Below are positions 4,395-63,039 of a stretch of 64,000 nt of DNA, one piece after another. Each line of letters begins with the position of its first letter. Position 1 is the first letter of the stretch. Source of the DNA: Candidatus Buchananbacteria bacterium. Its GTDB lineage: Bacteria > Patescibacteriota > Patescibacteriia > CAIXNZ01. A model generated the notes under the pieces. It saw nothing but the letters and a program-made list of their open reading frames with translations. It was not told the origin of the DNA and did no database searches. Position numbers and translations under genes: made by a program. The DNA lies in assembly GCA_014729025.1 (NCBI GenBank), contig WJKP01000045.1:20015-84014 (forward strand). The letters are read 5' to 3'.

Positions 4395-5813
4395 ATGAGA
4401 AAAATATTACTTTGCTTAATTATAAGTTTAATCTTGCCGGCACAGGCAATTGCCCAAGAAACAACCAATGATAATATGATCACCAGACCAATGATACGCA
4501 TTTTAAATTCTGAAAATTTTACCTTAGAATATGAATTTTATCCATTTTCAGAAGACTCAACAGCCCAAGGCGCTAATATTGCTACTGCTGACTTAAATAA
4601 TGACGGTTACAAAGAAATAATAGTAGCCACTGGCCGAAATGAAAAACCTTGGGTAAAAATATTTAATCATCTTGGTAAATTTCAATATCAATTTTTAGCC
4701 TATGCCGAGACTTTTCAAAAAGGCTTTAAGATAATCACTGCTGATTTATATAATGATGGTTCGCCTGAAATAATTACTGCGCCTAATGAAGGCGGTGGGC
4801 CACAAATCAGAATTTTTGATAATCTTGGTTTTGCTTATTTTAGTTTTTTTGCTTTTGATGAAAGCCTAAGGGGTGGCGCCAATGTTTCAGTCGGTGATGT
4901 CAATGGGGACAGCCAACCAGAAATAATAGTTGGTGCTGGTTATGACCAAGAACCAATCATTAAAATCTTTGATAATTACAGCAATTTTATAAAAGCCTTT
5001 TATACTTATGACGATAGTTTTAAAGGTGGTATTTCGGTTTTAGCGGCTGATTTAAATAAGGACAAAACCGCTGAAATAATTACTGCGCCTTATATTGAAA
5101 AAGAACCAATGATCAGAATTTTTGATTATGACGGTAATTTAATTAATCAATTCATTGCTTATCCTCAAGGCTTTTGGGGCGGAGTTAACTTAGCCAAAAG
5201 TGATGTTGATCGGGACGGTTATTTAGAAATTTTAACCGGCGCCGGTTATAGTGGGGGGGCTCATTTAAGATTTTTTAATAAAGAGGGCATTCCTAAAATT
5301 AACCCAACTTTATTTATTTTTGATAATTTTAAAGGCGGTATTTCCATTGCTGACGGTGACATTAATAATGACGGCCAAACAGAAATATTAGCCGCGACAC
5401 AAATAATTTCACCAATTGATAAATATGATTCTTACAAATCTATTGAAATTGATATTAATCAGCAAAAATTATTTACTTATTTTAAAGGCCAGCCAGTCAA
5501 AGAATTTTGGGTATCAACAGGCACCTGGAAATTCCCAACACCCTTGGGTGAATATAAAATTTATGCCAAGGTTCCCAGTACAAATATGACCGGTTATTAT
5601 GGTTTTAATCATCCTGATAACTATGAACTGGCTAATGTACCGCATGTTATGCCTTTTTATAAAAATTATGCTATCCATGGTGCTTACTGGCATTGGAATT
5701 TTGGTACCAGAGTCAGCCATGGCTGTGTTAATTTAAAATTACCAGATGCAGAATGGTTATATAATTGGTCTCATATTGGCACACCTGTAAAAATTCATTA
5801 TTCAGCTCAATGA
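4395..5813 (+). CDS. Secreted FG-GAP/VCBS-like repeat protein with a C-terminal L,D-transpeptidase (YkuD) domain
   Basis: A signal peptide MRKILLCLIISLILPAQA is present. About 6 repeats of the form AD(L/V)N(N/G)DG..EII.A are visible. The C-terminus carries ...GTRVSHGCVNLKLPDAEWLYNW, the YkuD catalytic His/Cys. Confidence 0.7.
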   Translation: MRKILLCLIISLILPAQAIAQETTNDNMITRPMIRILNSENFTLEYEFYPFSEDSTAQGANIATADLNNDGYKEIIVATGRNEKPWVKIFNHLGKFQYQFLAYAETFQKGFKIITADLYNDGSPEIITAPNEGGGPQIRIFDNLGFAYFSFFAFDESLRGGANVSVGDVNGDSQPEIIVGAGYDQEPIIKIFDNYSNFIKAFYTYDDSFKGGISVLAADLNKDKTAEIITAPYIEKEPMIRIFDYDGNLINQFIAYPQGFWGGVNLAKSDVDRDGYLEILTGAGYSGGAHLRFFNKEGIPKINPTLFIFDNFKGGISIADGDINNDGQTEILAATQIISPIDKYDSYKSIEIDINQQKLFTYFKGQPVKEFWVSTGTWKFPTPLGEYKIYAKVPSTNMTGYYGFNHPDNYELANVPHVMPFYKNYAIHGAYWHWNFGTRVSHGCVNLKLPDAEWLYNWSHIGTPVKIHYSAQ

Positions 5814-8936: not shown

Positions 8937-10172
8937 ATGAAAAAAACAAAAAAATTAATTTTTCTGTTAATTTTATGCTTATTGATTTTAAGCTGCAATT
9001 TTAGCGTTGCCTCAGAAACAAATTATGATTTATATTCTGATGATTCAGAAATTCAAGATCTGAATCAAAAAATCAAAAATAATCAAAATAAAATAGAAAA
9101 TTTAAAAAAAGCTACTGAAGAATATGCGCAAAAAATTGAAGAATACAGAGATAAGGCTGCTTCTTTAAAAAATCAAATTTCTTTACTGGATAATCAAATC
9201 TTAAAATTAGAATTGGATATAAAAACAACACAATTGCAAATAGATAAAATAAAACTGGAAATAGAATCAATGGAATTTCAAATTGATAAAGAAGAAAAAG
9301 ATATTGAACTGCAAAAAAATAATTTAATTGAATATATTAAATTAATAGATCAAACTGATCAAAAATCATATTTAGAAATTTTAATTCTTAATAATTCGTT
9401 TGCTGAATTTTTCAACCAATTAAATTATTTGGAGGAAATTCAAAATAATATTAAAAATTCTGTTGATCGGCTTAAATTATTAAAGGAGGCGATTGAAGTT
9501 CAAAGAGCTGATAAAGTAACTCGTCAAGAAGAATTAGAAGAGCTAAAACAAGAGCAGGAGGCACAAGAAGAAAAATTAAAACAAGAAAACAAAGCTAAAG
9601 AAATTTTACTTCTAGAAACAAAATCTTCAGAAATTCAATTTGAAAGACTTTTGGTTGAAACCAGGCAAAGGCAAGAAGCTATTGGTACTGACATTGTTGA
9701 CATTAAACATAAAATTGAAGACCGGATAGAAAGACTAAGAAGTGGTAGTACCTCACCAAAAACAACTTTGCTTAGCTGGCCAATTCCTGCCCCTCATACT
9801 GTAACGGCTTATTTTCATGACCCTGATTATCCTTATCGTTATATTTTTGAACATCCGGCTATTGATTTAAGAGCCAGTCAAGGCACAGCCATTACAGCCC
9901 CGGCACCTGGCTATGTCGCTAGAATTAAAGATGCAGGCTATGGCTATAGTTATATAATTTTGATTCATGATAATAATATTTCTACAGTCTATGGTCATGT
10001 CAGTGCCATGTATGTTACTGAAGACACTTTTGTTGACACAGGTGATGTTATTGGTTTAACAGGCGGAATGCCCGGTACGCTAGGCGCTGGTAATTTGTCA
10101 ACCGGACCTCATTTGCATTTTGAAGTTAGATTAAACGGTATTCCTGTAAATCCTTTGGAATATTTGCCTTAA
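8937..10172 (+). CDS. Secreted coiled-coil M23 (LytM/EnvC-like) metalloendopeptidase
   Basis: A signal peptide is followed by a long heptad coiled coil (QDLNQKIKNNQNKIENLKK...). The C-terminal M23 motifs are HPAIDL (HxxxD) and GPHLHFEVR (HxH). Confidence 0.8.
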   Translation: MKKTKKLIFLLILCLLILSCNFSVASETNYDLYSDDSEIQDLNQKIKNNQNKIENLKKATEEYAQKIEEYRDKAASLKNQISLLDNQILKLELDIKTTQLQIDKIKLEIESMEFQIDKEEKDIELQKNNLIEYIKLIDQTDQKSYLEILILNNSFAEFFNQLNYLEEIQNNIKNSVDRLKLLKEAIEVQRADKVTRQEELEELKQEQEAQEEKLKQENKAKEILLLETKSSEIQFERLLVETRQRQEAIGTDIVDIKHKIEDRIERLRSGSTSPKTTLLSWPIPAPHTVTAYFHDPDYPYRYIFEHPAIDLRASQGTAITAPAPGYVARIKDAGYGYSYIILIHDNNISTVYGHVSAMYVTEDTFVDTGDVIGLTGGMPGTLGAGNLSTGPHLHFEVRLNGIPVNPLEYLP

Positions 10173-10194: not shown

Positions 10195-11235
10195 ATGAAA
10201 TCTAAAAATTTTATTAATAATAAAATTTTTCTTATTACTGGTATTATATTGCTAAGCTATATTTTTTTATTTACCTCAAATTTAAAAGCAGCTTCCCCCA
10301 CAAAACAGGCTGAATTAACCCTACAAGTTCCTTTACTTGGTTATACGAAAGCTTCGGGTATAGCAGAATATATAGGTAAAATATATGAAGCATCACTTTA
10401 TATTATAGTACCGATTGTTATTGTTATAATAATATTTGCTGGTATTAAATGGATTTTTGCTGGGGGAGATGTATCTAAAATAAAAGAAGCTAAAAAATAT
10501 ATTACCAGTGCTTTTATTGGTTTAACTATAGCCCTTTTAAGTTATGTTATTTTATCATTTATTGGTATAACTGAATTAGGGACACCTGAAATTAAGCATA
10601 TTGAAGAAATAGAATCACCTGATATTTTTAGCGCTCCACCAACTGGGTTTAATGTTAGCGCACCAGGTGTTATTCCTGGCGATATTTATTGTCCTAAATC
10701 AGGAGGTGCTGCATCCATGGAAAAAATAGCCAAATCAGCAGTTGGTAGGGTTACTTATAGAATGGGAGGGAAAATCTGGAACGGACCGCCTTATACTGCT
10801 GATAGTAAGGATTGCGGAGTCGCTCCTTGTAAATCTTTTTGTCCAACAGGAACTGTTTGCCTTGACTGTTCTGGCTTTGTGAGTTTTGTATATAAATGTG
10901 GTGGTTTAAAAGGCCCCCCTTCATATACTGGCTCGATGTTTGGTTGTAATTGCAGTAAAAGTGAAAAAATTAATAATGTTGGACCCAACTCAATAAACGG
11001 TAAAACATTAGTCCCTGGTGATTTTGTTGGTTATCCTTCTGGCTGTAAACACGGAGTCGGCCATGTTTACATTTATGTTGGCGGTGGAACCATATTTGAA
11101 AGCCATGGCGGTGGCGGAACTTCAAACCCCAATAGTGGCAGACATCCTGGTAAAGCTATTTTAGGCACACCTTTTAATTCTCACCGCTGGGTAGGCGCTG
11201 GCAAACCTAAATGCGTGGTTAGAATTAATCCTTAA
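10195..11235 (+). CDS. Secreted protein with a VirB2/TrbC-pilin-like N-terminal two-helix module fused to a Cys-rich NlpC/P60 peptidase domain (paralog 1 of 3)
   Basis: The N-terminal module is LQVPLLGYTKASGIAEYIGKIYEASLYIIVPIVIVIIIFAGIKWIFAGG...FIGLTIALLSYVILSFIGI. The C-terminus carries the NlpC/P60 catalytic Cys in CLDCSGFVSFVYKCGG and His in GHVYIYVGGGTIFESHGG. Confidence 0.7.
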   Translation: MKSKNFINNKIFLITGIILLSYIFLFTSNLKAASPTKQAELTLQVPLLGYTKASGIAEYIGKIYEASLYIIVPIVIVIIIFAGIKWIFAGGDVSKIKEAKKYITSAFIGLTIALLSYVILSFIGITELGTPEIKHIEEIESPDIFSAPPTGFNVSAPGVIPGDIYCPKSGGAASMEKIAKSAVGRVTYRMGGKIWNGPPYTADSKDCGVAPCKSFCPTGTVCLDCSGFVSFVYKCGGLKGPPSYTGSMFGCNCSKSEKINNVGPNSINGKTLVPGDFVGYPSGCKHGVGHVYIYVGGGTIFESHGGGGTSNPNSGRHPGKAILGTPFNSHRWVGAGKPKCVVRINP

Positions 11236-11241
11236 ATTAAT

Positions 11242-12195
11242 ATGAAATTTAAAAAAATAAAATTAACAATATTTTTTTCTGTTATTTTTTTATCCGTTAA
11301 ACCATTAGTTGGGTTAGCCACAACAGCAGAAACAGCTAAGTTAAAATTGCAAGTACCTTTATTAGATTACACGGAAGCAAGCAACATAGCCGAATACATC
11401 GGTAATATTTATACCGCAGTTTTATATATTATTGTTCCAATTATAATTGTTGTAATAATTTTTTCTGGTATTTTATGGGTTATAGCAGGTGGCAATCAAG
11501 AATTAATCAATAAAGCTAAAAGTCGAATTTTACATGGATTTATTGGTTTAGGTATTGCTTTATTTAGTTATGTTTTACTTTCTTTTGTTGGAATAAAAGA
11601 AATAACAACACCGGGTATCGCTAAAATTGATCCGGTAAAAGGACAATACATAATTATCGATGGAGAAGTTTTATCTGTTGATGAAGCTATGTCAAAACTT
11701 CCACCAGAAAGAAGGGGGAAAATGAGTGCTTTTGATGCTGCCAGCTGTCCCAAAGGACAAACAACATTTGAGGTCTTCTTCACAAATTATTATTTTCCAC
11801 AATATGGAGAATCTTATGGCAATAACGACTTTTTTTGTAATGTTGGCATGCAGTGCAGCTGCCCCAAAGGCAAAGATACAAGTAGACAATGTAATTATGG
11901 GAAACGATATAATCCCTGTGCTTATTTCCCGAAGGGAACGCCTTATTGTAATGCAACCGCCTCTGGCAGACCTCCCAAGGCGAATTATACGGTAGCTGCT
12001 GATGATTCCTGTTTTAAATATGGTTGCAAATTTACTATTCAAGGAAGCGCTTCTAATACATACGAAATTATGGATACTGGTAGTTGGATAAAAAACAGAC
12101 ACATGGATTTATTTGTTGGTACTAGAAGTAATATTAATAAAATCCATGGCGTATATACTATTAATTTATTAAACCCTTCAGCCTGCTTTAAATAA
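11242..12195 (+). CDS. Secreted protein with a pilin-like N-terminal module fused to a Cys-rich 3D (MltA/YuiC-like, DPBB) domain (paralog 2 of 3)
   Basis: The N-terminal module is LQVPLLDYTEASNIAEYIGNIYTAVLYIIVPIIIVVIIFSGILWVIAGG...FIGLGIALFSYVLLSFVGI. The C-terminal ...YEIMDTGSWIKNRHMDLFVGT resembles the conserved-Asp 3D domain. Confidence 0.6.
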   Translation: MKFKKIKLTIFFSVIFLSVKPLVGLATTAETAKLKLQVPLLDYTEASNIAEYIGNIYTAVLYIIVPIIIVVIIFSGILWVIAGGNQELINKAKSRILHGFIGLGIALFSYVLLSFVGIKEITTPGIAKIDPVKGQYIIIDGEVLSVDEAMSKLPPERRGKMSAFDAASCPKGQTTFEVFFTNYYFPQYGESYGNNDFFCNVGMQCSCPKGKDTSRQCNYGKRYNPCAYFPKGTPYCNATASGRPPKANYTVAADDSCFKYGCKFTIQGSASNTYEIMDTGSWIKNRHMDLFVGTRSNINKIHGVYTINLLNPSACFK

Positions 12196-12211
12196 AATTT
12201 TACGACACATC

Positions 12212-13357
12212 ATGAAAAACCATAAAAAAACAAAATATTTATTAATTATTTTTATTGTAATTTTTTTATTTTGTTTAGCTACAAACACTGTAAATGCTCA
12301 ACAGACTTGTGAACAAAAATATCCGGGTGGGGATGGCGTCTGTCGTGATACTTGTAAAGATTGGGAATCTGAAGATAGTGCTTCTGGACTTTGTTCTGAT
12401 GCAAATGAAACATGCTGTCACGAATTTGCTGAAACAGCCAGCTTACAACTACAAATACCGATTTTGCAATACACTGAATCTTCAAATGTTTATGAATATG
12501 CCGGTAATATTTATACTGCTGCTTTATATATTATAGTACCAATCGCAATTGTAGTTATTATTATATCCGGTATAATTTGGGCGTCTTCAGGCGGTAATGC
12601 CGAACAAATGCAATCCGCTAAAAATATGATTTTAAGGGCTTTTATTGCTCTTGGTATTGCACTTTTAAGTTATACGATTTTATCCGTTGTAGGTATTACC
12701 TCTATCGGCGGCGGGGCAGGGGTAACCTATCTAGAACCAACATCTGAAGAATACGGAATTTTAGAATTTGAAAACTCAGTTGGCATGTCAACAGGAGTCA
12801 CCGGTGCTAATTATCCCAGTATTGGGGGCAAATGTTTTCCAGTTGCCGCTAATAGTTTTAAAAAAATTAGCTGGAATTGGGGAAATAGAAGAAGTGATGG
12901 AAAAAGATGTCATGCCGGAATCGATATTTATACCAAAAGTCCTGGCCATGTTATTGCTATTGCTGAAGGGGTTATAACTGGAATCTCTAAAAATTTTTAT
13001 ACTTGCAAATCCGGCTGGACAGGCCCTGGCAAAGTAGGTAAAATTATGATTAACCACGGCATCCATACAATAAATTATGCTGAAATAGATGTTGATAAAT
13101 TTGCTGGTGGTATACGAATCGGTAAAACTGTAAAAGCCGGAGAATTTCTGGGTGTTGCCGGACATTGCGGTATGTTGCATTTTGAATTATATAAAGGTAA
13201 AACAAGCAACAGCACCCCCTGGTACCCACCTTCAGGTAAAAGGGTAGGAGGAGCAGCAAATTATTGCCGCGCCCATTATCTTTCTTCTAAGCCAGCGAAT
13301 CTACTTGATCCCTCAAAAACAATACAAGCTTTACAAAGTAATATGTGTGGTAAATAA
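12212..13357 (+). CDS. Secreted protein with a Cys-rich leader, a pilin-like module and a divergent M23 peptidase domain (paralog 3 of 3)
   Basis: The module LQIPILQYTESSNVYEYAGNIYTAALYIIVPIAIVVIIISGIIWASSGG...FIALGIALLSYTILSVVGI is present. The M23-like motifs are CHAGIDIY (HxxxD) and GHCGMLHFELY. The N-terminus has 6 Cys in 40 aa. Confidence 0.65.
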   Translation: MKNHKKTKYLLIIFIVIFLFCLATNTVNAQQTCEQKYPGGDGVCRDTCKDWESEDSASGLCSDANETCCHEFAETASLQLQIPILQYTESSNVYEYAGNIYTAALYIIVPIAIVVIIISGIIWASSGGNAEQMQSAKNMILRAFIALGIALLSYTILSVVGITSIGGGAGVTYLEPTSEEYGILEFENSVGMSTGVTGANYPSIGGKCFPVAANSFKKISWNWGNRRSDGKRCHAGIDIYTKSPGHVIAIAEGVITGISKNFYTCKSGWTGPGKVGKIMINHGIHTINYAEIDVDKFAGGIRIGKTVKAGEFLGVAGHCGMLHFELYKGKTSNSTPWYPPSGKRVGGAANYCRAHYLSSKPANLLDPSKTIQALQSNMCGK

Positions 13358-13744: not shown

Positions 13745-13767
13745 AAATAAAATATAATTAAAATAAA

Positions 13768-13800
13768 AAAGAAGGTATTTGAAAAAACCTCTTTTTTTTT
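13768..13800 (+). terminator. Intrinsic terminator after the HExxH gene
   Basis: An imperfect hairpin aagaaggt-atttgaaaaa-acctctt is followed by T9. Confidence 0.5.
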
Positions 13801-14061
13801 ATTAATAAATTAAAAGGAGAGTGGTTATCTTACGAACAGCATTGCGACGCACAATATATCTTATACGACACAACAAGCGTATATTTACACAAGTGCCTTT
13901 CTTATTAATTTCTAAAAAATAAAAATTTATACATTTTGTAAAATTTTCAAACTTTATTTAAATTTAATAATAATTTCAATTAATTCAAACGGATAAAATC
14001 TATTATATTATATTTAATTAATACTTCCAGATTCAAATATTTAACTCAAATAACCCAAGTA

Positions 14062-14090
14062 TTGACAAATCGTCAAATATATGATATATT
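14062..14090 (+). promoter_or_regulatory. Near-consensus sigma-70 promoter with an extended -10 (TTGACA-N17-tgaTATATT)
   Basis: TTGACA lies at 14062-14067. A 17-nt spacer follows. TG is at 14082-14083 and TATATT at 14085-14090. The promoter sits about 38 nt upstream of the aaaaggaggt SD and the ATG at 14128. Confidence 0.55.
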
Positions 14091-14127
14091 ATAAAATTGC
14101 ATTTAATCTTAAAAGGAGGTAACGGTA

Positions 14128-14274
14128 ATGCCAATACTGAATTGCCCACAATGCGGCGCTCAAATGAATTATTTTGATAATAATTCTAGAGCTCAATGCC
14201 CAATCTGCAAAACCTGGGATTTTGCTTTCAGGTTGCTAAAATGGACAAAACAGACTACACCGGCAACAATGTAA
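14128..14274 (+). CDS. 48-aa zinc-ribbon small protein (CxxC...CxxC), not in the ORF track
   Basis: The product is MPILNCPQCGAQMNYFDNNSRAQCPICKTWDFAFRLLKWTKQTTPATM. A strong SD AAAAGGAGGT is 7 nt upstream. A consensus promoter lies upstream. The ORF is followed by a caccggc/gccggtg-like hairpin and T-run that overlap the ftsQ 3' end. Confidence 0.5.
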   Translation: MPILNCPQCGAQMNYFDNNSRAQCPICKTWDFAFRLLKWTKQTTPATM

Positions 14275-14297
14275 AGTTGTATAAGACCGGTGCTTTT

Positions 14298-15215: not shown

Positions 15216-15950
15216 TTATATTTTCTTATAATAATTTGAAGCAAATCTTGATATTAAATAGCTCCAAACAGCATGAACACCAAACTTATTCAAATTAGCT
15301 TGCCCCTCTTCCCCATTAACATTGAATTTAAATTTTTGACCATTTTCAATTTGCTGCAAGTTATAAGCTCTTATTAATGACTTATCTGATAAACCAAATT
15401 TATAAATTTTATTCTTTGGTAATTCCAACTCAGATAATAATAAGTCTTCATTTAAAATAATGGCACTCCCCCTCACCCAAAAACCAATCAATCCCTTGAC
15501 AGATTCTTGAGATTTTTTGCTAAAATTAGCATCAAAATCACTAAAGATGACGATATTAGGCTGTTTAAACTTAAATAAATATCTAATATCTTTTAGGTTA
15601 TTAATTGTCACCTCCAAAACCAAAATTTCCTTAATGTCATTGCTTTTTATTTTCTTGAATAATAATTTATTAAATCCGTTAAAAAATAATTTAAGCCATT
15701 TAAAAACAGAAGAAAAACCAGCTTGTAAATTTAAAATGGACAAAGGCACGCCAATTTCAGAATTATATCCCTTTAAATTGCCTCTTACTTTATATTTATT
15801 ATCAGCTAAATCCTTAACTATTTCTTCTTTTATATTACTGCGATTAATTTGACCAAAAACTAAAATTATCTCCGGTTTAAATTTTTTAATATAAAATTGG
15901 GCCTGCCAGCTCAATATAAAAACAGCCATTTTCCTGAAAATTTTTTTCAT
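15216..15950 (-). CDS. Truncated MurF-like Mur ligase paralog with a degenerate P-loop (N-terminal and central domain only). It may be a pseudoenzyme or a relic.
   Basis: Against E. coli MurF, SWQAQF matches QWRAQF. IILVFGQINRSNIKEEIV sits in place of VIAITGSNGKTTTKEM, so GxxGKT is lost. GNLKGYNSEIGVPLSILNL matches GNLNNDIGVPMTLLRL. The C-terminal domain is absent (244 aa against ~450). Confidence 0.55.
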   Translation of the reverse strand: MKKIFRKMAVFILSWQAQFYIKKFKPEIILVFGQINRSNIKEEIVKDLADNKYKVRGNLKGYNSEIGVPLSILNLQAGFSSVFKWLKLFFNGFNKLLFKKIKSNDIKEILVLEVTINNLKDIRYLFKFKQPNIVIFSDFDANFSKKSQESVKGLIGFWVRGSAIILNEDLLLSELELPKNKIYKFGLSDKSLIRAYNLQQIENGQKFKFNVNGEEGQANLNKFGVHAVWSYLISRFASNYYKKI

Positions 15951-15962
15951 GATTAAATTATT

Positions 15963-17264
15963 TTATTTTTTAGTAATTTTCTGCTGATTTGCTAAATACG
16001 GTCTTAAAACTTCTGGTATTGTTATACTACTATCTTTATTTTGATAATTTTCCCAAAGAGCTATTAAAATACGAGGCGAAGCCAAGGCAGTATTATTTAA
16101 AGTATAAGCGTACTTAGTCTCGCCTTTTTGATCCTTATATCTAAGATTTAAGCGGCGAGCTTGCCAATCAGTTAAAAAAGAATCGGAATGAGTTTCCGAA
16201 TAAGCCCGGCGAGAAGGCATCCAAGTTTCAAGATCATACATTTTATATTTACCTGCTCCCATATCACCAGTACAAATTGAAACAACCTGATAAGGTAATT
16301 TAAAATCCTGTAAAATTTCTTCGGCAATTTCACGTAAATTTTCCAAAAATTTTAAACCTTCTTTAATATCAGCCTGACAAATAATTACCTGCTCAACTTT
16401 CCAAAATTCATGCAACCTATAAATACCCCGGGTATCTTTCCCATAACTACCAACTTCACTTCTATAGCAAGGAGAAAAAGCGCAATATTTTAAAGGTAAT
16501 TCTTTTTTATCCAAAATTTCATTGGCATGATAAGCAAGCAAGGCCGGCTCAGAAGTTCCGGCCAAAAATAATGACTCTTTGACTTTTTCACCTGTTTCCA
16601 ATTTACCAGGATTGCCAATCTGATAAACTTCTTCTTTGCCTTCCGGAAAATGCCCTGAACCGATTAAAGCCATTTCTCTGACTAAAGTTGGAGGGATAAA
16701 AGGCGTAAAACCTTTAGCAATTAATTTATTAAAAACATACATTAAAACAGCTAGATGCATTCTGGCACCATCATTTTTCAAATAATAACCACGAAAACCA
16801 GATGCTTTTACTCCTCTATCAATATCCAAAATATTCAAGTCTTTACCTAACTGCAAGTGATCTTTAATCTTAAAATTAAACTCAGGTAATTCACCTTTTT
16901 TATCAATAACTTTATTAACAGATTCATCAGACCCAACCGGTGTATCTTCTGAAATAAGATTGGGTACTTTTAGCATCATTTCGTCAAATTGGGCTTTAAC
17001 TTTATCAAAATCATTTTCTAGAGCCATTAATTTATCTTTTAAGACTTTTCCTTCATTGATTAATTTATTAGTTCTTTTTTGGGGATCTTTGAGTAATTCA
17101 GCATTAGCATTTCTTTTCTGGCGTAAATCATCAATTTTTTGAATTAATTCCCGTCTTTTATCATCTAATTTTAATAATTTTTCATAATCTAATTCAATGC
17201 CTTTATTTTTAGTTACTTGTTTTAATTCTTGTAAATTGTCTCTTATAAAATTTATATCTAACAT
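15963..17264 (-). CDS. serS: Seryl-tRNA synthetase
   Basis: An N-terminal coiled-coil arm MLDINFIRDNLQELKQ... is followed by a class II core (FRGYYLKNDGARMHLAV..., GSGHFPEGKEEVYQ, CFSPCYRSEVGSYGKDTRGIYRLHEF). Confidence 0.9.
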   Translation of the reverse strand: MLDINFIRDNLQELKQVTKNKGIELDYEKLLKLDDKRRELIQKIDDLRQKRNANAELLKDPQKRTNKLINEGKVLKDKLMALENDFDKVKAQFDEMMLKVPNLISEDTPVGSDESVNKVIDKKGELPEFNFKIKDHLQLGKDLNILDIDRGVKASGFRGYYLKNDGARMHLAVLMYVFNKLIAKGFTPFIPPTLVREMALIGSGHFPEGKEEVYQIGNPGKLETGEKVKESLFLAGTSEPALLAYHANEILDKKELPLKYCAFSPCYRSEVGSYGKDTRGIYRLHEFWKVEQVIICQADIKEGLKFLENLREIAEEILQDFKLPYQVVSICTGDMGAGKYKMYDLETWMPSRRAYSETHSDSFLTDWQARRLNLRYKDQKGETKYAYTLNNTALASPRILIALWENYQNKDSSITIPEVLRPYLANQQKITKK

Positions 17265-17489
17265 ATATTTTAATGGTTAATATTGAGTAGTCTATTATAA
17301 ATAAAAATTTTCAGCTAAAATCCGAGCAAATTTTACTGTAAATAACAAAATAATCAAATTGTTTTAAGCTTAACTGCATAACTAAATTCTAGCAAAAATT
17401 GACATTGTAATCAAGATTTTATAAGATTTAAATATCAATAGCACATTAACAATCGCGAAAATAAATCAAAACCCAAAAAGGAGGAGAAC

Positions 17490-19073
17490 ATGTGTGGTAT
17501 CGGAGGTGAAGTCTTAAAAAATAAACAAAAAAAACTTATTGCTCTAAGAGCAAGGAATGCTGGTATTGCCATTAACTATCGAGGCAATGAATCTGCTGGC
17601 ATTACCATAACCGATGGGATTAACTTACGAACTCAAAAAGGCTATGGTGAATTTATTGAAGCTATTCCTTTAACCTGGGCTGAACTAAAAAAAGGATTGG
17701 CCGCAATTTTCCAAAACCGATATTCAACTACTGGTAGCGGTGTTAACCAGACCGAAAGAACCAGGCAAAAACCAATCAATCCCTTGATTGAATTTGAGGA
17801 TATGGAAGATTTGCCGGGCCTAGCCAACTGTCAACCTTTTTATTTAGACTCTGAAAAACTACGAATCAATATTGCTTTAGTGCAAAATGGCAACCTGACT
17901 AACCTTTCAGAAATAAAAACTTTTCTCGATAAACACGGGATTAATGAGTTTCTAACAGAAACTGACACTGAACTCATTGTTCGGTTAATTGTTTATTTTC
18001 TAGAAAATCCCCCCCATAACAAAGCAAAAGGCAAGCATCGTATTGTTACGGCAATAAAAACAACTATGCAAAAAATAAAAGGCGCTTATTCCTGCCTTTT
18101 GTTGACCAATGAAGGTATTTTTGCTTTTCGCGATCCTCATGGTATTCGCCCCTTAAAAATTGCTGAAACACCCGACAGTTTTATTTTTGCGTCAGAACCA
18201 GTTGCCTGGCACGGACGTGAAGCGACTTATCTGGGAAATGTCAGCCCAGGACAAATAATAGAGGCCCGAATTGGTTCAAAAACGCTTAAAACTCATCAGG
18301 GCGTAAAAAAAAGCAAAAGAGCTTTTTGTATATTTGAAGATATATACTTACAGGCTGGCTATAACGAAAAAGTTGCTGTAATTCGAAAAAAATTCGGAGA
18401 AAGACTTTTTGATTTACATGCCAAACCAGGCATTGTTATTCCGATAATGAATTCCGGTGAAATAGCCGCTTTAGGGTATCACTCTTCTCAGAGTTTAAAA
18501 TTCCCTGGCAAATCATTCTACTGGCCAGCGCTTTACAAAAATCCTCATGTGGGCCGAACTTTCTTAGAACCAGACGAAGAAGATCGCATCAAAAAGAATA
18601 AAAAGAAATACTTCACTTTATTCAAAGCTCTAAAAAAGGAGCTATATTTCCTGGCTAAGATGCAAAAGGAAATTTGGCTTATCTTTATTGATGATTCACT
18701 GGTTAGATCAAATGTTTCAAGGACGCTTATTAAAATAGTCAGACAATGCCTAAAAGAGCTTTATCCTGATATTTATGCCAAAATCAAGATTGCCTGGCTA
18801 CTTAGCTCGCCCCCCTATACACATCCTTGTTTTTATGGAGTTGATACTTATAATGTAAATGATCTTATTGCTGCTAAATTTGACAGTAATATTAAAAAAA
18901 TACGACAAAGTATCAATGCTTCTTACTTGGGCTACCTACCAATTGAAGATACATTAACTATCGCTGCAGAAGTACACGGGCTTAAATCAATAGATTTTTG
19001 TTGTGCCTGTTTTACTGGCAAATATCCAGTAAAAATAGATCCTCAACAAACTAAAATGTGTCTGGTTATTTAA
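17490..19073 (+). CDS. purF: Class-II (Ntn) glutamine amidotransferase with a C-terminal PRTase domain, amidophosphoribosyltransferase-like
   Basis: The protein starts MCGIGGEV (catalytic Cys2). NGNLTN, CQPFY and RDPHGIRPL blocks are present. The PRTase motif is IWLIFIDDSLVRSNVSRT. The SD is aaaaaggagga. Confidence 0.7.
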   Translation: MCGIGGEVLKNKQKKLIALRARNAGIAINYRGNESAGITITDGINLRTQKGYGEFIEAIPLTWAELKKGLAAIFQNRYSTTGSGVNQTERTRQKPINPLIEFEDMEDLPGLANCQPFYLDSEKLRINIALVQNGNLTNLSEIKTFLDKHGINEFLTETDTELIVRLIVYFLENPPHNKAKGKHRIVTAIKTTMQKIKGAYSCLLLTNEGIFAFRDPHGIRPLKIAETPDSFIFASEPVAWHGREATYLGNVSPGQIIEARIGSKTLKTHQGVKKSKRAFCIFEDIYLQAGYNEKVAVIRKKFGERLFDLHAKPGIVIPIMNSGEIAALGYHSSQSLKFPGKSFYWPALYKNPHVGRTFLEPDEEDRIKKNKKKYFTLFKALKKELYFLAKMQKEIWLIFIDDSLVRSNVSRTLIKIVRQCLKELYPDIYAKIKIAWLLSSPPYTHPCFYGVDTYNVNDLIAAKFDSNIKKIRQSINASYLGYLPIEDTLTIAAEVHGLKSIDFCCACFTGKYPVKIDPQQTKMCLVI

Positions 19074-60993: not shown

Positions 60994-63039
60994 TTATTCA
61001 CTTTCTTGTGTCTTTTTATACAAAAATAACCAATTAATTTTATTAATAAAATTCCAGTTGATGACTGATTGTAAAACTGTCTTAGTTACAAACAATGCTG
61101 AAATCATAGAAATTAAAATACCAATCAATAAAGTTAAAGCAAAACCCTGAATAATACTTGTGCCAAACCAGTATAAAATAACACAAGTAATCAAAGTCGA
61201 GATATTACCGTCACGAATAGACGGCCAGGCGCGCTCAAATCCTTCGCTAAGCGCTGAACCTAGTGGTTTGCCTAACTTTAATTCTTCTTTCATTCTTTCA
61301 AAAATCAAAACATTAGCATCCACTGCCATACCAACTGATAAGATAAAACCAGCTATGCCAGCCAAAGTTAAAGTGACTGGAATTAATTTAAAAATAGCTA
61401 AAATCACTATCCCGTAAATACATAATGAAATAACCGAAATTAAACCGGGTAACCGATAATAAATTATCATAAACAAACCAACTAAAATCAAACCTAAAAT
61501 TGCGGCCTCTAAACTCTTAGTTAAAGATTCTTGCCCCAAACTGGCGCCAACGGTTTGCTGTGAAATAATATCAATTGGTACTGGCAAGGCACCGGCATTG
61601 AGGCGTCTGACTAAAGTTTTGGCCTCTTCTAAGGTAAATTTGCCAGTAATCACCGCTTTACCACCGCTAATTTTTTCATTGACCCTGGGTAAGCTAATAG
61701 GCTCACCATCAAGAAAAATACCAACGACCTGCCCGACATTACGAGCAGTTATTTCCTCAAAAAGTTGTTTTCCTTCATCATTAAACTGCAATTCAACGTT
61801 TGGTTCATTGGTATTAGGATTAAAACTAACCTGTGCGCCGTCTAATTGTTTACCGGAAAGTCCAGTATATTCAAACTGTTCCTGTGGCACAATATCTGAT
61901 TTTTTTTGTTTTTTAATTAAAACTCTGTAAACTTGAAAAGTTCTTTCTTGTTTTTCATCTACTTTATGAATCAAATGAAAACCAAATTGTGTTTCAACAA
62001 TATCAGAAATTTGACCATTTTCTAAATTAAACGCAACTTCTTCAAATTCAGGCACCATTTGTCCTTTACTAAAAAAGCCCAAATTACCACCACTAGTATC
62101 AGCGCCTGGTTCGGTTGAATTTTCTTTGGCTAATTCAGTAAAATTTTCAGGTGTAGCCTTTTCTTTTAATTCCTCAATCTTGCCTCTGGCATCTTCTTTG
62201 GAAATATCTTGTTCGCAACGAGTCGCGCCTTCATAACAGATTAAAATATGACTGGCTTGGACCTGTTTTTCTGTGCCGTTTTCACCACGTTTTAAAATAT
62301 TATAACCCTCACTATTTTCAAAAATCTGCCCATAAATATCACCTGGGGCAATTTGTTTAATTGGCGTTAAAAATTCGCTTTTAGGTCCGCTTTCACTAAT
62401 AAAACCTAAATCACCACCATCTTCTTTAGTTGCCAAATCTTCTGATTTTTCTTTGGCAATTTTCGAAAACTGATCAGGATTATTTTTAACTTCTTGTAAA
62501 ATTTCTTCAGCTTTTTGTTCTGCTTGTTGATTATATTCTTCTAATTGTTGCTGCTGGTCTTCGCTTAATTCAACTTCACTACTGGCTTGTTCTTTAAATT
62601 CCAATAAAGGTGTTTCACCGATCATTTTTATTGCTTCATTGACATCTTTAATGCCGGCTAATTCAACAATTACCCTATACTGTTTACCTACTTTAGTTGT
62701 CTGAACCAAGGGCTCGGACACGCCAAACGCATTAACTCTTCGTTCAATCACATCGCGAACACCTTCAACTGCATCGGCTTGATCTTTAGTCGGCACCTTA
62801 GAAACATCAGCATTATAAACCAAATGCGTGCCACCCTGTAAATCCAAGCCTAAAACAAACGATAAATCAGGATAATGAGGCAAATCAAATGGTAATTTAT
62901 TATTAGCCCAATCAACTGAATTATTCCAAATTTTGGGATAATCTAAAAAGCCTGCCAGAATTGCCACTAGCAAGATTAAAACTATATATAATCTAATTTT
63001 ATTGCGCTGACTAATTGTTACGCTTGATTTTCTTTTCAT
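60994..63039 (-). CDS. secD: Protein translocase subunit SecD carrying one canonical and one degenerate parvulin (PpiC-type PPIase) domain in the periplasmic head
   Basis: The N-terminus has GLDLQGGTHLVY and the TM core has VDANVLIFERMKEE. The inserted canonical parvulin is ASHILI...SGGNLGFFSKGQMVPEFEEVAF...TQFGFHLIHKV. A preceding degenerate copy is SEDLATKEDGGDLGFISESG...YNILKRGE. Confidence 0.85.
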   Translation of the reverse strand: MKRKSSVTISQRNKIRLYIVLILLVAILAGFLDYPKIWNNSVDWANNKLPFDLPHYPDLSFVLGLDLQGGTHLVYNADVSKVPTKDQADAVEGVRDVIERRVNAFGVSEPLVQTTKVGKQYRVIVELAGIKDVNEAIKMIGETPLLEFKEQASSEVELSEDQQQQLEEYNQQAEQKAEEILQEVKNNPDQFSKIAKEKSEDLATKEDGGDLGFISESGPKSEFLTPIKQIAPGDIYGQIFENSEGYNILKRGENGTEKQVQASHILICYEGATRCEQDISKEDARGKIEELKEKATPENFTELAKENSTEPGADTSGGNLGFFSKGQMVPEFEEVAFNLENGQISDIVETQFGFHLIHKVDEKQERTFQVYRVLIKKQKKSDIVPQEQFEYTGLSGKQLDGAQVSFNPNTNEPNVELQFNDEGKQLFEEITARNVGQVVGIFLDGEPISLPRVNEKISGGKAVITGKFTLEEAKTLVRRLNAGALPVPIDIISQQTVGASLGQESLTKSLEAAILGLILVGLFMIIYYRLPGLISVISLCIYGIVILAIFKLIPVTLTLAGIAGFILSVGMAVDANVLIFERMKEELKLGKPLGSALSEGFERAWPSIRDGNISTLITCVILYWFGTSIIQGFALTLLIGILISMISALFVTKTVLQSVINWNFINKINWLFLYKKTQESE

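Follow-up and report, generated by a model that had tools for sequence, protein, structure and literature searches.

The 64,000-nucleotide stretch of Candidatus Buchananbacteria DNA analysed here (the window; G+C content, 31.5%) carries on its minus strand an open reading frame (ORF) for a MurF-like protein of only 244 amino acids, situated between the seryl-tRNA synthetase gene serS and a homologue of the cell division gene ftsQ (Table 1). An exact match of its product is present in the NCBI database (MBD3359904.1, GF365_04335) as a 'hypothetical protein' from an 89-kb contig of a metagenome-assembled genome of Candidatus Buchananbacteria. A preliminary description of the window had taken this ORF for a truncated murF paralogue with a destroyed P-loop in a dcw-like (division and cell wall) locus, representing either a recently decayed murF or a catalytically dead protein retained in the divisome. 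The sequence features on which it relied are all there: the frame is clean, the translation contains the strings SWQAQF and GNLKGYNSEIGVPLSILNL as well as GQINRSN in place of a Walker A motif of the GSNGKTT type, and ftsQ starts 7 nucleotides past the stop codon.

Homology of the protein to MurF is well beyond chance, as had been claimed. The NCBIfam model TIGR01143 (murF) matches it with an E-value of 1.4e-11, the MurF of PDB entry 2am1 matches it by sequence (E = 7e-4), and full-length MurFs of the Candidate Phyla Radiation (CPR) were aligned by profile search at 28-33% identity over ~96% of the query; structural matches are given below. The score against TIGR01143, however, is 44 bits as opposed to a curated cutoff of 288.6, and the match spans only positions ~97-261 of the 418 in the profile. 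Since the alignments to MurFs of known structure start at residues 70-90 (residue 16 of the query with residue 90 of the Streptococcus pneumoniae enzyme, residue 14 with residue 70 of the Thermotoga maritima enzyme), the SWQAQF block corresponds to the helix preceding the central domain. The window protein comprises this helix and the central (ATPase) domain but not the classical N-terminal domain, which the preliminary description had also assigned to it. The C-terminal Mur ligase domain (PF02875) is missing entirely, as described: the ORF stops at the last helix of the central domain, ftsQ leaves no room for more, and a six-frame hidden Markov model search with the family profile detected neither a second copy nor a C-terminal remnant, frameshifted or otherwise, in any frame of the window. 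The Pfam model PF08245 does not match the window protein and gives only weak matches in its relatives. Because the score, the domain architecture and the Walker A and His motifs (see below) all fail, the protein cannot be assigned to MurF itself; by its fold, it belongs to the Mur ligase superfamily. The full-length MurFs of Patescibacteria (~416-435 amino acids; P0021, L014:10001-11290 and others) themselves lack most of the classical N-terminal (UDP-binding) domain, with residues 1-17 aligning to approximately residues 56-73 of T. maritima MurF, and contain an extra insertion of ~30 amino acids after the NSEIGVPL loop.

Table 1. The short MurF-like gene, its sequence motifs and its immediate neighbours in the window.
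Feature	Position	Strand	Basis or remark
ftsQ homologue, 303 amino acids	14298..15209	-	Pfam POTRA_1 (3.2e-9), FtsQ_DivIB_C (2.3e-4)
Short MurF-like ORF	15216..15950	-	244 amino acids; Mur-ligase central domain only
Phe143 in place of the 'xHLE' Mg-binding His (lost)	15522..15524	-	Translation ANFSK
Glu113 of LxLE, Mg-binding Glu of Mur ligases (kept)	15612..15614	-	Translation VLEVT
YNSEIGVPL, residues 62-70, MurF signature loop kept in the short family	15741..15767	-	Translation
Degenerate Walker A/P-loop GQINRSN, residues 33-39	15834..15854	-	Replaces GS[VN]GKT[ST]
serS (seryl-tRNA synthetase)	15963..17264	-	Pfam tRNA-synt_2b, Seryl_tRNA_N

An AlphaFold2 model of the window protein, built from an alignment of 62 sequences, has a mean predicted local distance difference (pLDDT) of 91.3 and a predicted TM-score (pTM) of 0.90 and is closed by a long helix at residues 225-243. 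When this model was compared with the PDB using Foldseek, MurF structures ranked first (2am1, 4cvm, 1gg4 and 3zl8; E-values from 1e-9 to 2e-8, TMq ~0.65), followed by MurC, MurE, MurD and MurT, with the central domains of MurF, MurC, MurE and MurD matched at a probability of 1.0. Other matches included a subunit of the plastid-encoded RNA polymerase, PEP (8r6s_Q, 9epc_Q), and MurT (9sqj, 9sq9). The model and its matches thus indicate that the central-domain fold of Mur ligases, whose survival had been posed earlier as a question for structure prediction, is retained.

In active Mur ligases, the Gly that precedes the Walker A Lys and the Mg-binding His are invariant, and in MurF, D-Ala-D-Ala is bound by the C-terminal domain, two residues of which, an Arg and an Asp, are catalytic and invariant. 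Both the translation and a comparison of motifs across the family confirm that Walker A is destroyed in the window protein: the loop has no second Gly, and Arg37 stands at the position of the Lys, where every protein of at least 390 amino acids among those listed in our motif table has G-x-x-GK[ST]. The His position can be followed through the alignment from the canonical 'DAHIEYFG' of protein P0027 via 'SEYLDNFG' of P0006 to 'ANFSK' in the window. Since the C-terminal domain, the context of the Walker A Lys and the Mg-binding His have all been lost, the window protein is not a ligase, and it is presumably devoid of any catalytic activity. Other MurF features are kept. Asn63, Gly67, Pro69 and Leu70 of the signature loop are invariant or nearly so across the short and full-length sets, Glu113 is invariant in three alignments (A1, A2 and A3), and Lys41 and the N-x-D motif (Asn167, Asp169) are in place. 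When 60 short sequences were compared, with weighting, to 113 full-length ones, the short set proved to have lost constraint chiefly near the P-loop; both sets conserve the hydrophobic core, LxLE, N-x-D and the YN[ST]EIGxPL loop.

The short protein is not peculiar to this genome. An initial search returned five homologues of 238-248 amino acids with 37-73% identity to the window protein, and a profile search recovered 20 short members scoring at least 208 bits, followed by a sharp gap down to full-length MurFs at no more than 160 bits, which are 416-434-residue Patescibacteria proteins with intact P-loops of the GSVGKTS type. An exhaustive profile search of 1.84 billion representatives revealed dozens more short clusters among its best 150 matches, and the matches of both homology searches include approximately 57 short clusters with a degenerate P-loop. 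A further 80 loci, all coding for proteins of 236-291 amino acids, came from a scan of metagenomes that started from the larger of the two branches described below. The same short protein (227-291 amino acids) is found in more than 60 sequence clusters and in 94 genomic loci; the homologous truncated copies in relatives, whose absence would have spoken for a pseudogene fragment, are thus present at the same length across dozens of lineages. Where a source is named, it is Buchananbacteria, Falkowbacteria or 'Patescibacteria group'. Some sources label the short members 'UDP-N-acetylmuramyl pentapeptide synthase' or MurF ligase itself, others 'hypothetical protein'.

In a neighbor-joining tree computed from central-domain columns, 60 sequences form a clade that consists of 57 short proteins with a degenerate P-loop and three short proteins with GxxGK[ST], with no full-length protein inside. 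The split between short and full-length sequences returns in 25 of 40 bootstrap replicates when the P-loop columns are removed, which is moderate support. Two main branches make up the short clade. The window's branch (a) has a GQxxR[ST]N loop and no trace of the His motif, with Phe, Leu or a gap at the His position. In the larger branch (b), most members have a conserved G[ST]TNKT loop and a Tyr at the His position ('RYLE'). Between three and five members of the family retain GxxGK[ST]. We define the short family as proteins of ~227-291 amino acids that end at the boundary of the central domain and cluster with the short clade, not with full-length MurF. The window protein, with its 244 amino acids, its place inside the 60-member clade, its degenerate Walker A, its lost His and the ftsQ gene next to it, is a member. 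A survey of the literature on truncated or dead MurF or other Mur ligases in CPR bacteria found no account of such proteins, and the short family is a conserved, widespread and previously undescribed pseudoenzyme variant of MurF.

To gauge selection, the ratio of nonsynonymous to synonymous substitution rates (dN/dS), a check already suggested in the preliminary description, was calculated by the Nei-Gojobori method between the window and two orthologous loci from other samples (L001 and L004), whose short proteins are 74% and 72% identical to that of the window. The short gene has a dN/dS of 0.24-0.28 at an unsaturated dS of ~0.6, compared with 0.10-0.19 for ftsQ and 0.07 for serS. It is under clear purifying selection, somewhat more relaxed than that on its neighbours. 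The ratio is far from 1, the frames are intact and the length is kept in all relatives, none of which is the mark of a pseudogene.

The arrangement of the locus ties the short gene to ftsQ. The FtsQ homologue, encoded by a clean frame of 912 nucleotides that begins after a gap of 6 nucleotides, consists of a basic cytoplasmic tail of 41 amino acids, a transmembrane segment, a POTRA domain and the FtsQ/DivIB C-terminal domain. Upstream, serS stops 12 nucleotides before the ATG of the short gene and is probably the first gene of a serS-short-ftsQ transcription unit; promoter-like sites were detected at 17267-17432 and no terminator-like site between the genes, although these consensus matches are near the background level. 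Among the 84 loci with at least 200 nucleotides of downstream sequence, ftsQ directly follows on the same strand in 71, at distances from -73 to +193 nucleotides. In the window's branch, serS lies directly upstream and ftsQ directly downstream in eight of eight loci. Close relatives retain the serS-short-ftsQ order, and a scan of representative genomes adds loci of Falkowbacteria and other Patescibacteria with the short-ftsQ pair. In seven loci (L083, L084, L085, L090, L091, L096 and L078), lgt, the gene for prolipoprotein diacylglyceryl transferase, lies downstream of the short gene, directly or after a small membrane protein. The latter, of ~100 amino acids, precedes lgt in L084, L085, L090 and L096, and a conserved protein of ~350 amino acids of unknown function is encoded after lgt in L083, L084, L090, L091 and L096.

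Across the FtsQ homologues, the cytoplasmic tails are ~20-55 amino acids long and very basic and contain short motifs conserved within lineages, which may serve as docking sites. The window's clade has YKNPLK and others have Y-x-NPFF, together accounting for 14 of the 63 distinct tails; a further group has RNP[KR][IM]YSGVPKR. The ~550 nucleotides directly downstream of ftsQ (13745-14297) contain no ORF of at least 50 amino acids on either strand, which is an unusually long gap for so compact a genome; no tRNA or Rfam element was found in the gap or elsewhere in the locus.

Branch b preserves a richer neighbourhood. Of its 78 informative loci, 74 have a class-I aminotransferase gene upstream of the short gene, and ddl is found in the flank of 15 loci, often preceded by serS. 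The aminotransferase, which is absent from the window, is apparently intact (e.g. L011:3362-4522 and L064:8700-9890; PF00155 and the SFSK Lys motif); it scores best against 'aminotransferase A'/AspAT-type models and also matches DapL-type ones, in every case below the cutoff. The recurrent order serS-ddl-aminotransferase-short-ftsQ appears to be ancestral and, because of it, the short gene can be placed at the classical ddl-ftsQ junction of the division and cell-wall cluster. On this comparison, the window's branch has lost ddl and the aminotransferase gene from the locus and kept the short gene together with ftsQ. The wider window includes lysS, greA, a PurF-like amidotransferase gene, mreBCD-PBP2, ATP synthase genes and tRNA synthetase genes; no other Mur ligase, ddl, ftsA or ftsZ was found near the short gene in the window. 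The term 'dcw-like' is therefore apt for the locus in distant relatives, with its ddl-ftsQ position, but not for the window, where serS is the upstream neighbour.

At least one relative encodes a catalytic-looking MurF together with the short form. In locus L078, the genes for MurF, ddl, the aminotransferase and the short protein follow one another on one contig, and the 322-residue MurF fragment scores 169 bits against TIGR01143 and has intact His and C-terminal motifs (NESHLE and DDSYN). In locus L014, a full-length CPR MurF is encoded at the canonical position, mraZ-rsmH-ftsL-ftsI-murF. Full-length MurF of the Patescibacteria type is very widespread, with 6443 clusters passing an E-value of 1e-60 in the profile search. 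Among the best 120 of these 6443 matches none is labelled Buchananbacteria, and the eight NCBI MurFs matched by accession number include none from the genomes of P0008 or P0019. The window codes for PBP2, MreBCD, an L,D-transpeptidase and M23/NlpC peptidases; the organism therefore makes peptidoglycan and is expected to possess a functional MurF. Indirectly, these findings speak for a separate, functional MurF in the radiation.

Taken together, we consider it fairly probable that the product of the ORF is a paralogue of the Patescibacteria-type MurF that is conserved, has no ligase function, consists of the central domain only and is tied to cell-wall synthesis and division. In the scenario that we propose, one ancient duplication and a C-terminal truncation at the ddl-ftsQ end of the division and cell-wall cluster would have given rise to the gene, which would then have been retained under purifying selection. 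The protein has kept the fold, the YN[ST]EIGxPL loop, the Mg-binding Glu and the N-x-D motif. What looks like the substrate-side signature of MurF is preserved; the chemistry of ATP phosphate and metal is lost, along with the domain for D-Ala-D-Ala. The protein may serve in the cytoplasm as a binding partner or adaptor through which the late cytoplasmic stages of precursor synthesis (Ddl/MurF, UDP-MurNAc-peptide) are connected with the divisome, and its gene would be co-transcribed with ftsQ, probably with translational coupling. Candidate ligands would be a precursor-like molecule, a Mur or Ddl enzyme, or the long basic cytoplasmic tail of FtsQ. We favour an adaptor role because the substrate-side signature is kept, the catalytic chemistry is lost and the protein is probably expressed with an FtsQ whose cytoplasmic tail is long and basic. 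The most specific form of this proposal, a dedicated pseudo-ligase adaptor that recognises a peptidoglycan precursor or MurF/Ddl, docks on the FtsQ tail and so couples precursor synthesis to the divisome, is put forward only tentatively. The earlier suggestion of a catalytically dead protein retained in the divisome agrees with the loss of motifs and domain and with the linkage to ftsQ in 71 of 84 loci; its other two elements, complete inactivity and contact with FtsQ, are plausible extensions of these data.

Several observations weigh against this interpretation. In 13 of the 84 informative loci, there is no detectable ftsQ downstream, and seven of these 13 are the lgt-type loci. Bootstrap support for the monophyly of the short clade is moderate (62%), and long-branch attraction among fast-evolving sequences may have contributed to the grouping. 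Because most of branch b conserves the G-[ST]-T-N-K-T loop and a few members have GxxGK[ST], phosphate or nucleotide binding may persist in the family, and the label 'dead' is safest if confined to the window's branch. The short family has gained few conserved positions (two weak candidates in the comparison of 60 short with 113 full-length sequences), so no new interface is evident from the sequence. Interaction with FtsQ or with a ligand is hypothetical, and the operon linkage may reflect nothing but the ancestral position in the dcw cluster. Finally, an intact murF of the source genome was not found; the 64-kb window contains no other Mur ligase.

The last point about linkage leads to an alternative that we regard as possible but unlikely, in which the short protein regulates or senses precursor synthesis without catalysis, for example by binding UDP-MurNAc-tripeptide or by heterodimerising with MurF or Ddl, and has no physical link to FtsQ, the adjacency of ftsQ being a relic of its birth between ddl and ftsQ. 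Such an origin, the loci that keep the short gene without adjacent ftsQ (13 of 84, seven of them with lgt) and the conserved MurF signature loop are all in its favour. Against it, the adjacency of ftsQ outlasted the loss of ddl and the aminotransferase gene in the window's branch, and the very short or overlapping intergenic distances suggest coupled expression.

Slightly less credit can be given to a protein that is still enzymatic. It could be half of a split or heteromeric ligase with the C-terminal function supplied in trans, or a nucleotide-dependent protein that uses the N-K-T/N-R-S loop with the retained Mg-binding Glu and N-x-D, with Ddl and the class-I aminotransferase as possible partners in a precursor-modifying reaction. 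The replacement loops are themselves conserved within each branch (G[ST]TNKT in b, GQxxR[ST]N in a), so the Lys-to-Arg and Thr-to-Ser changes are conservative ones; Glu113, Lys41, Asn167 and Asp169 are kept, three to five members hold GxxGK[ST], and the linkage to the aminotransferase (74 of 78 branch-b loci) and ddl (15 loci) is tight. Nearly all members, however, have lost the Gly before the Walker A Lys and the Mg-binding His, no separate gene for a C-terminal domain adjoins the short gene in any of the 94 loci, and the window's branch has neither aminotransferase nor ddl as neighbours, yet its short gene stays with ftsQ.

That the ORF is a fragment of a recently decayed murF, kept open by chance, is very improbable. 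Its catalytic motifs are degraded, its C-terminal domain is gone and its dN/dS exceeds that of the neighbouring genes, as such a reading would predict. However, proteins cut to this length occur in over 60 clusters and 94 loci, with identities as low as ~35% and no frameshifts or internal stops, and they group in one clade. The dN/dS lies well under 1, and dS is not saturated. The protein is cut precisely at a domain boundary and ends in a confidently predicted helix, and synteny is conserved; the related contig that carries a catalytic-looking MurF in addition to the short copy also speaks against recent decay. That an ordinary murF lost its P-loop or its C-terminal domain through an error of sequencing or assembly, which is conceivable in a metagenome-assembled genome and was raised as a caveat in the preliminary description, is the least credible explanation of all, as independent assemblies from other samples (Logan, JGI, NCBI) agree with the window in architecture and in the GQINR[ST]N loop, the 912 nucleotides that follow code for FtsQ in a clean frame, and no frame of the window contains Mur_ligase_C-like sequence. 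Conserved length, a single clade, dN/dS, synteny and independent assemblies together rule out both the pseudogene and the artefact.

The closest full-length relative found for the window protein is the Patescibacteria form of MurF (~420-435 amino acids), with which it shares the N-terminal helix, the insertion after the NSEIGVPL loop, the fold and the YN[ST]EIGxPL, LxLE and N-x-D motifs. Unlike MurF, the UDP-MurNAc-tripeptide:D-Ala-D-Ala ligase, it has no PF02875 domain, Walker A or Mg-binding His, and its gene precedes ftsQ, whereas murF follows ftsI or murE. Among the structural matches, the plastid protein (8r6s_Q, 9epc_Q) is one that we take to be the plant MurE-like PEP-associated protein PAP11, in which a Mur-ligase fold is likewise kept as a structural subunit of a larger machine and not as a ligase. 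PAP11, however, derives from MurE, has all three domains and works in transcription in eukaryotic plastids, so the analogy extends no further than the principle. Another Mur-ligase homologue without the classical N-terminal domain is MurT, which functions solely together with a partner protein, in the MurT/GatD lipid II amidotransferase; in contrast to the window protein, it is catalytic and has retained the C-terminal domain (DUF1727) as well as an active ATP site. In mycobacteria, MurA is regulated by CwlM, an amidase homologue that is itself catalytically inactive. CwlM illustrates how a copy of a peptidoglycan enzyme that has lost its activity can take on the control of precursor synthesis in the cytoplasm, but it has an unrelated amidase_3 fold, is controlled by phosphorylation, comes from another lineage and shares no homology with the short family. 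Precedents for contacts of Mur-ligase folds with FtsQ and other divisome or elongasome proteins do exist: a two-hybrid-type assay detected contacts of MurC-F of Mycobacterium tuberculosis with FtsQ, FtsW and FtsZ (PMC3605390), and MurG has been described as a scaffold (PMC6420597). These enzymes are full-length and active, and no dedicated non-catalytic adaptor is known. Functional analogies are thus available in PAP11, CwlM, the mycobacterial Mur contacts and MurG, but none of them is a homologous system.

Cell division and wall synthesis in CPR bacteria are almost unstudied, and their small genomes hold few superfluous genes. A dead MurF paralogue that such genomes keep under selection in many lineages, and that gene order binds to ftsQ, is therefore a tangible candidate for a connection of the divisome with precursor synthesis that is specific to this lineage. 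If the proposed adaptor role is correct, the short protein would be a previously unrecognised divisome component specific to the Patescibacteria radiation. Short proteins that are labelled as MurF could also be miscounted as the enzyme in metabolic reconstructions. The family further offers a stepwise decay series, from an intact P-loop through GSTNKT with His replaced by Tyr to GQxxR with the His motif gone, which is a useful natural series for the change from enzyme to pseudoenzyme.

Several other genes in the window have unusual architectures. Between lysS and serS, on the opposite strand (17490-19073, plus), lies a gene for a 527-residue glutamine amidotransferase-like protein that starts with MCGIGG and is conserved at this position in relatives. 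Its homologue in locus L008 matches the purF model weakly (112 bits versus a cutoff of 350), and the protein may be a divergent amidophosphoribosyltransferase-like enzyme. A 681-residue ORF at 60994-63039 (minus) combines two Rotamase stretches with the P1 head and C-terminal domains of SecD; it appears to encode a SecD homologue fused to PPIC-type peptidyl-prolyl isomerase (rotamase) domains. The exact 681-residue translation is not on record, so the start codon assigned here may not be the real one. The plus strand carries a tandem of four genes, the first of which (8937-10172) encodes an M23 peptidase that has a coiled coil and no pilin match. The other three (10195-13357), ORFs of 346, 317 and 381 amino acids, share an N-terminal pilin-like segment (T4SS_pilin matches on the L004 orthologues), which is fused to a cell-wall hydrolase domain in two of them: NlpC/P60 in the 346-residue protein and a weak M23 match in the 381-residue one. 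In addition, the gene at 4395-5813 (plus) encodes an L,D-transpeptidase (YkuD) domain fused to FG-GAP repeats.

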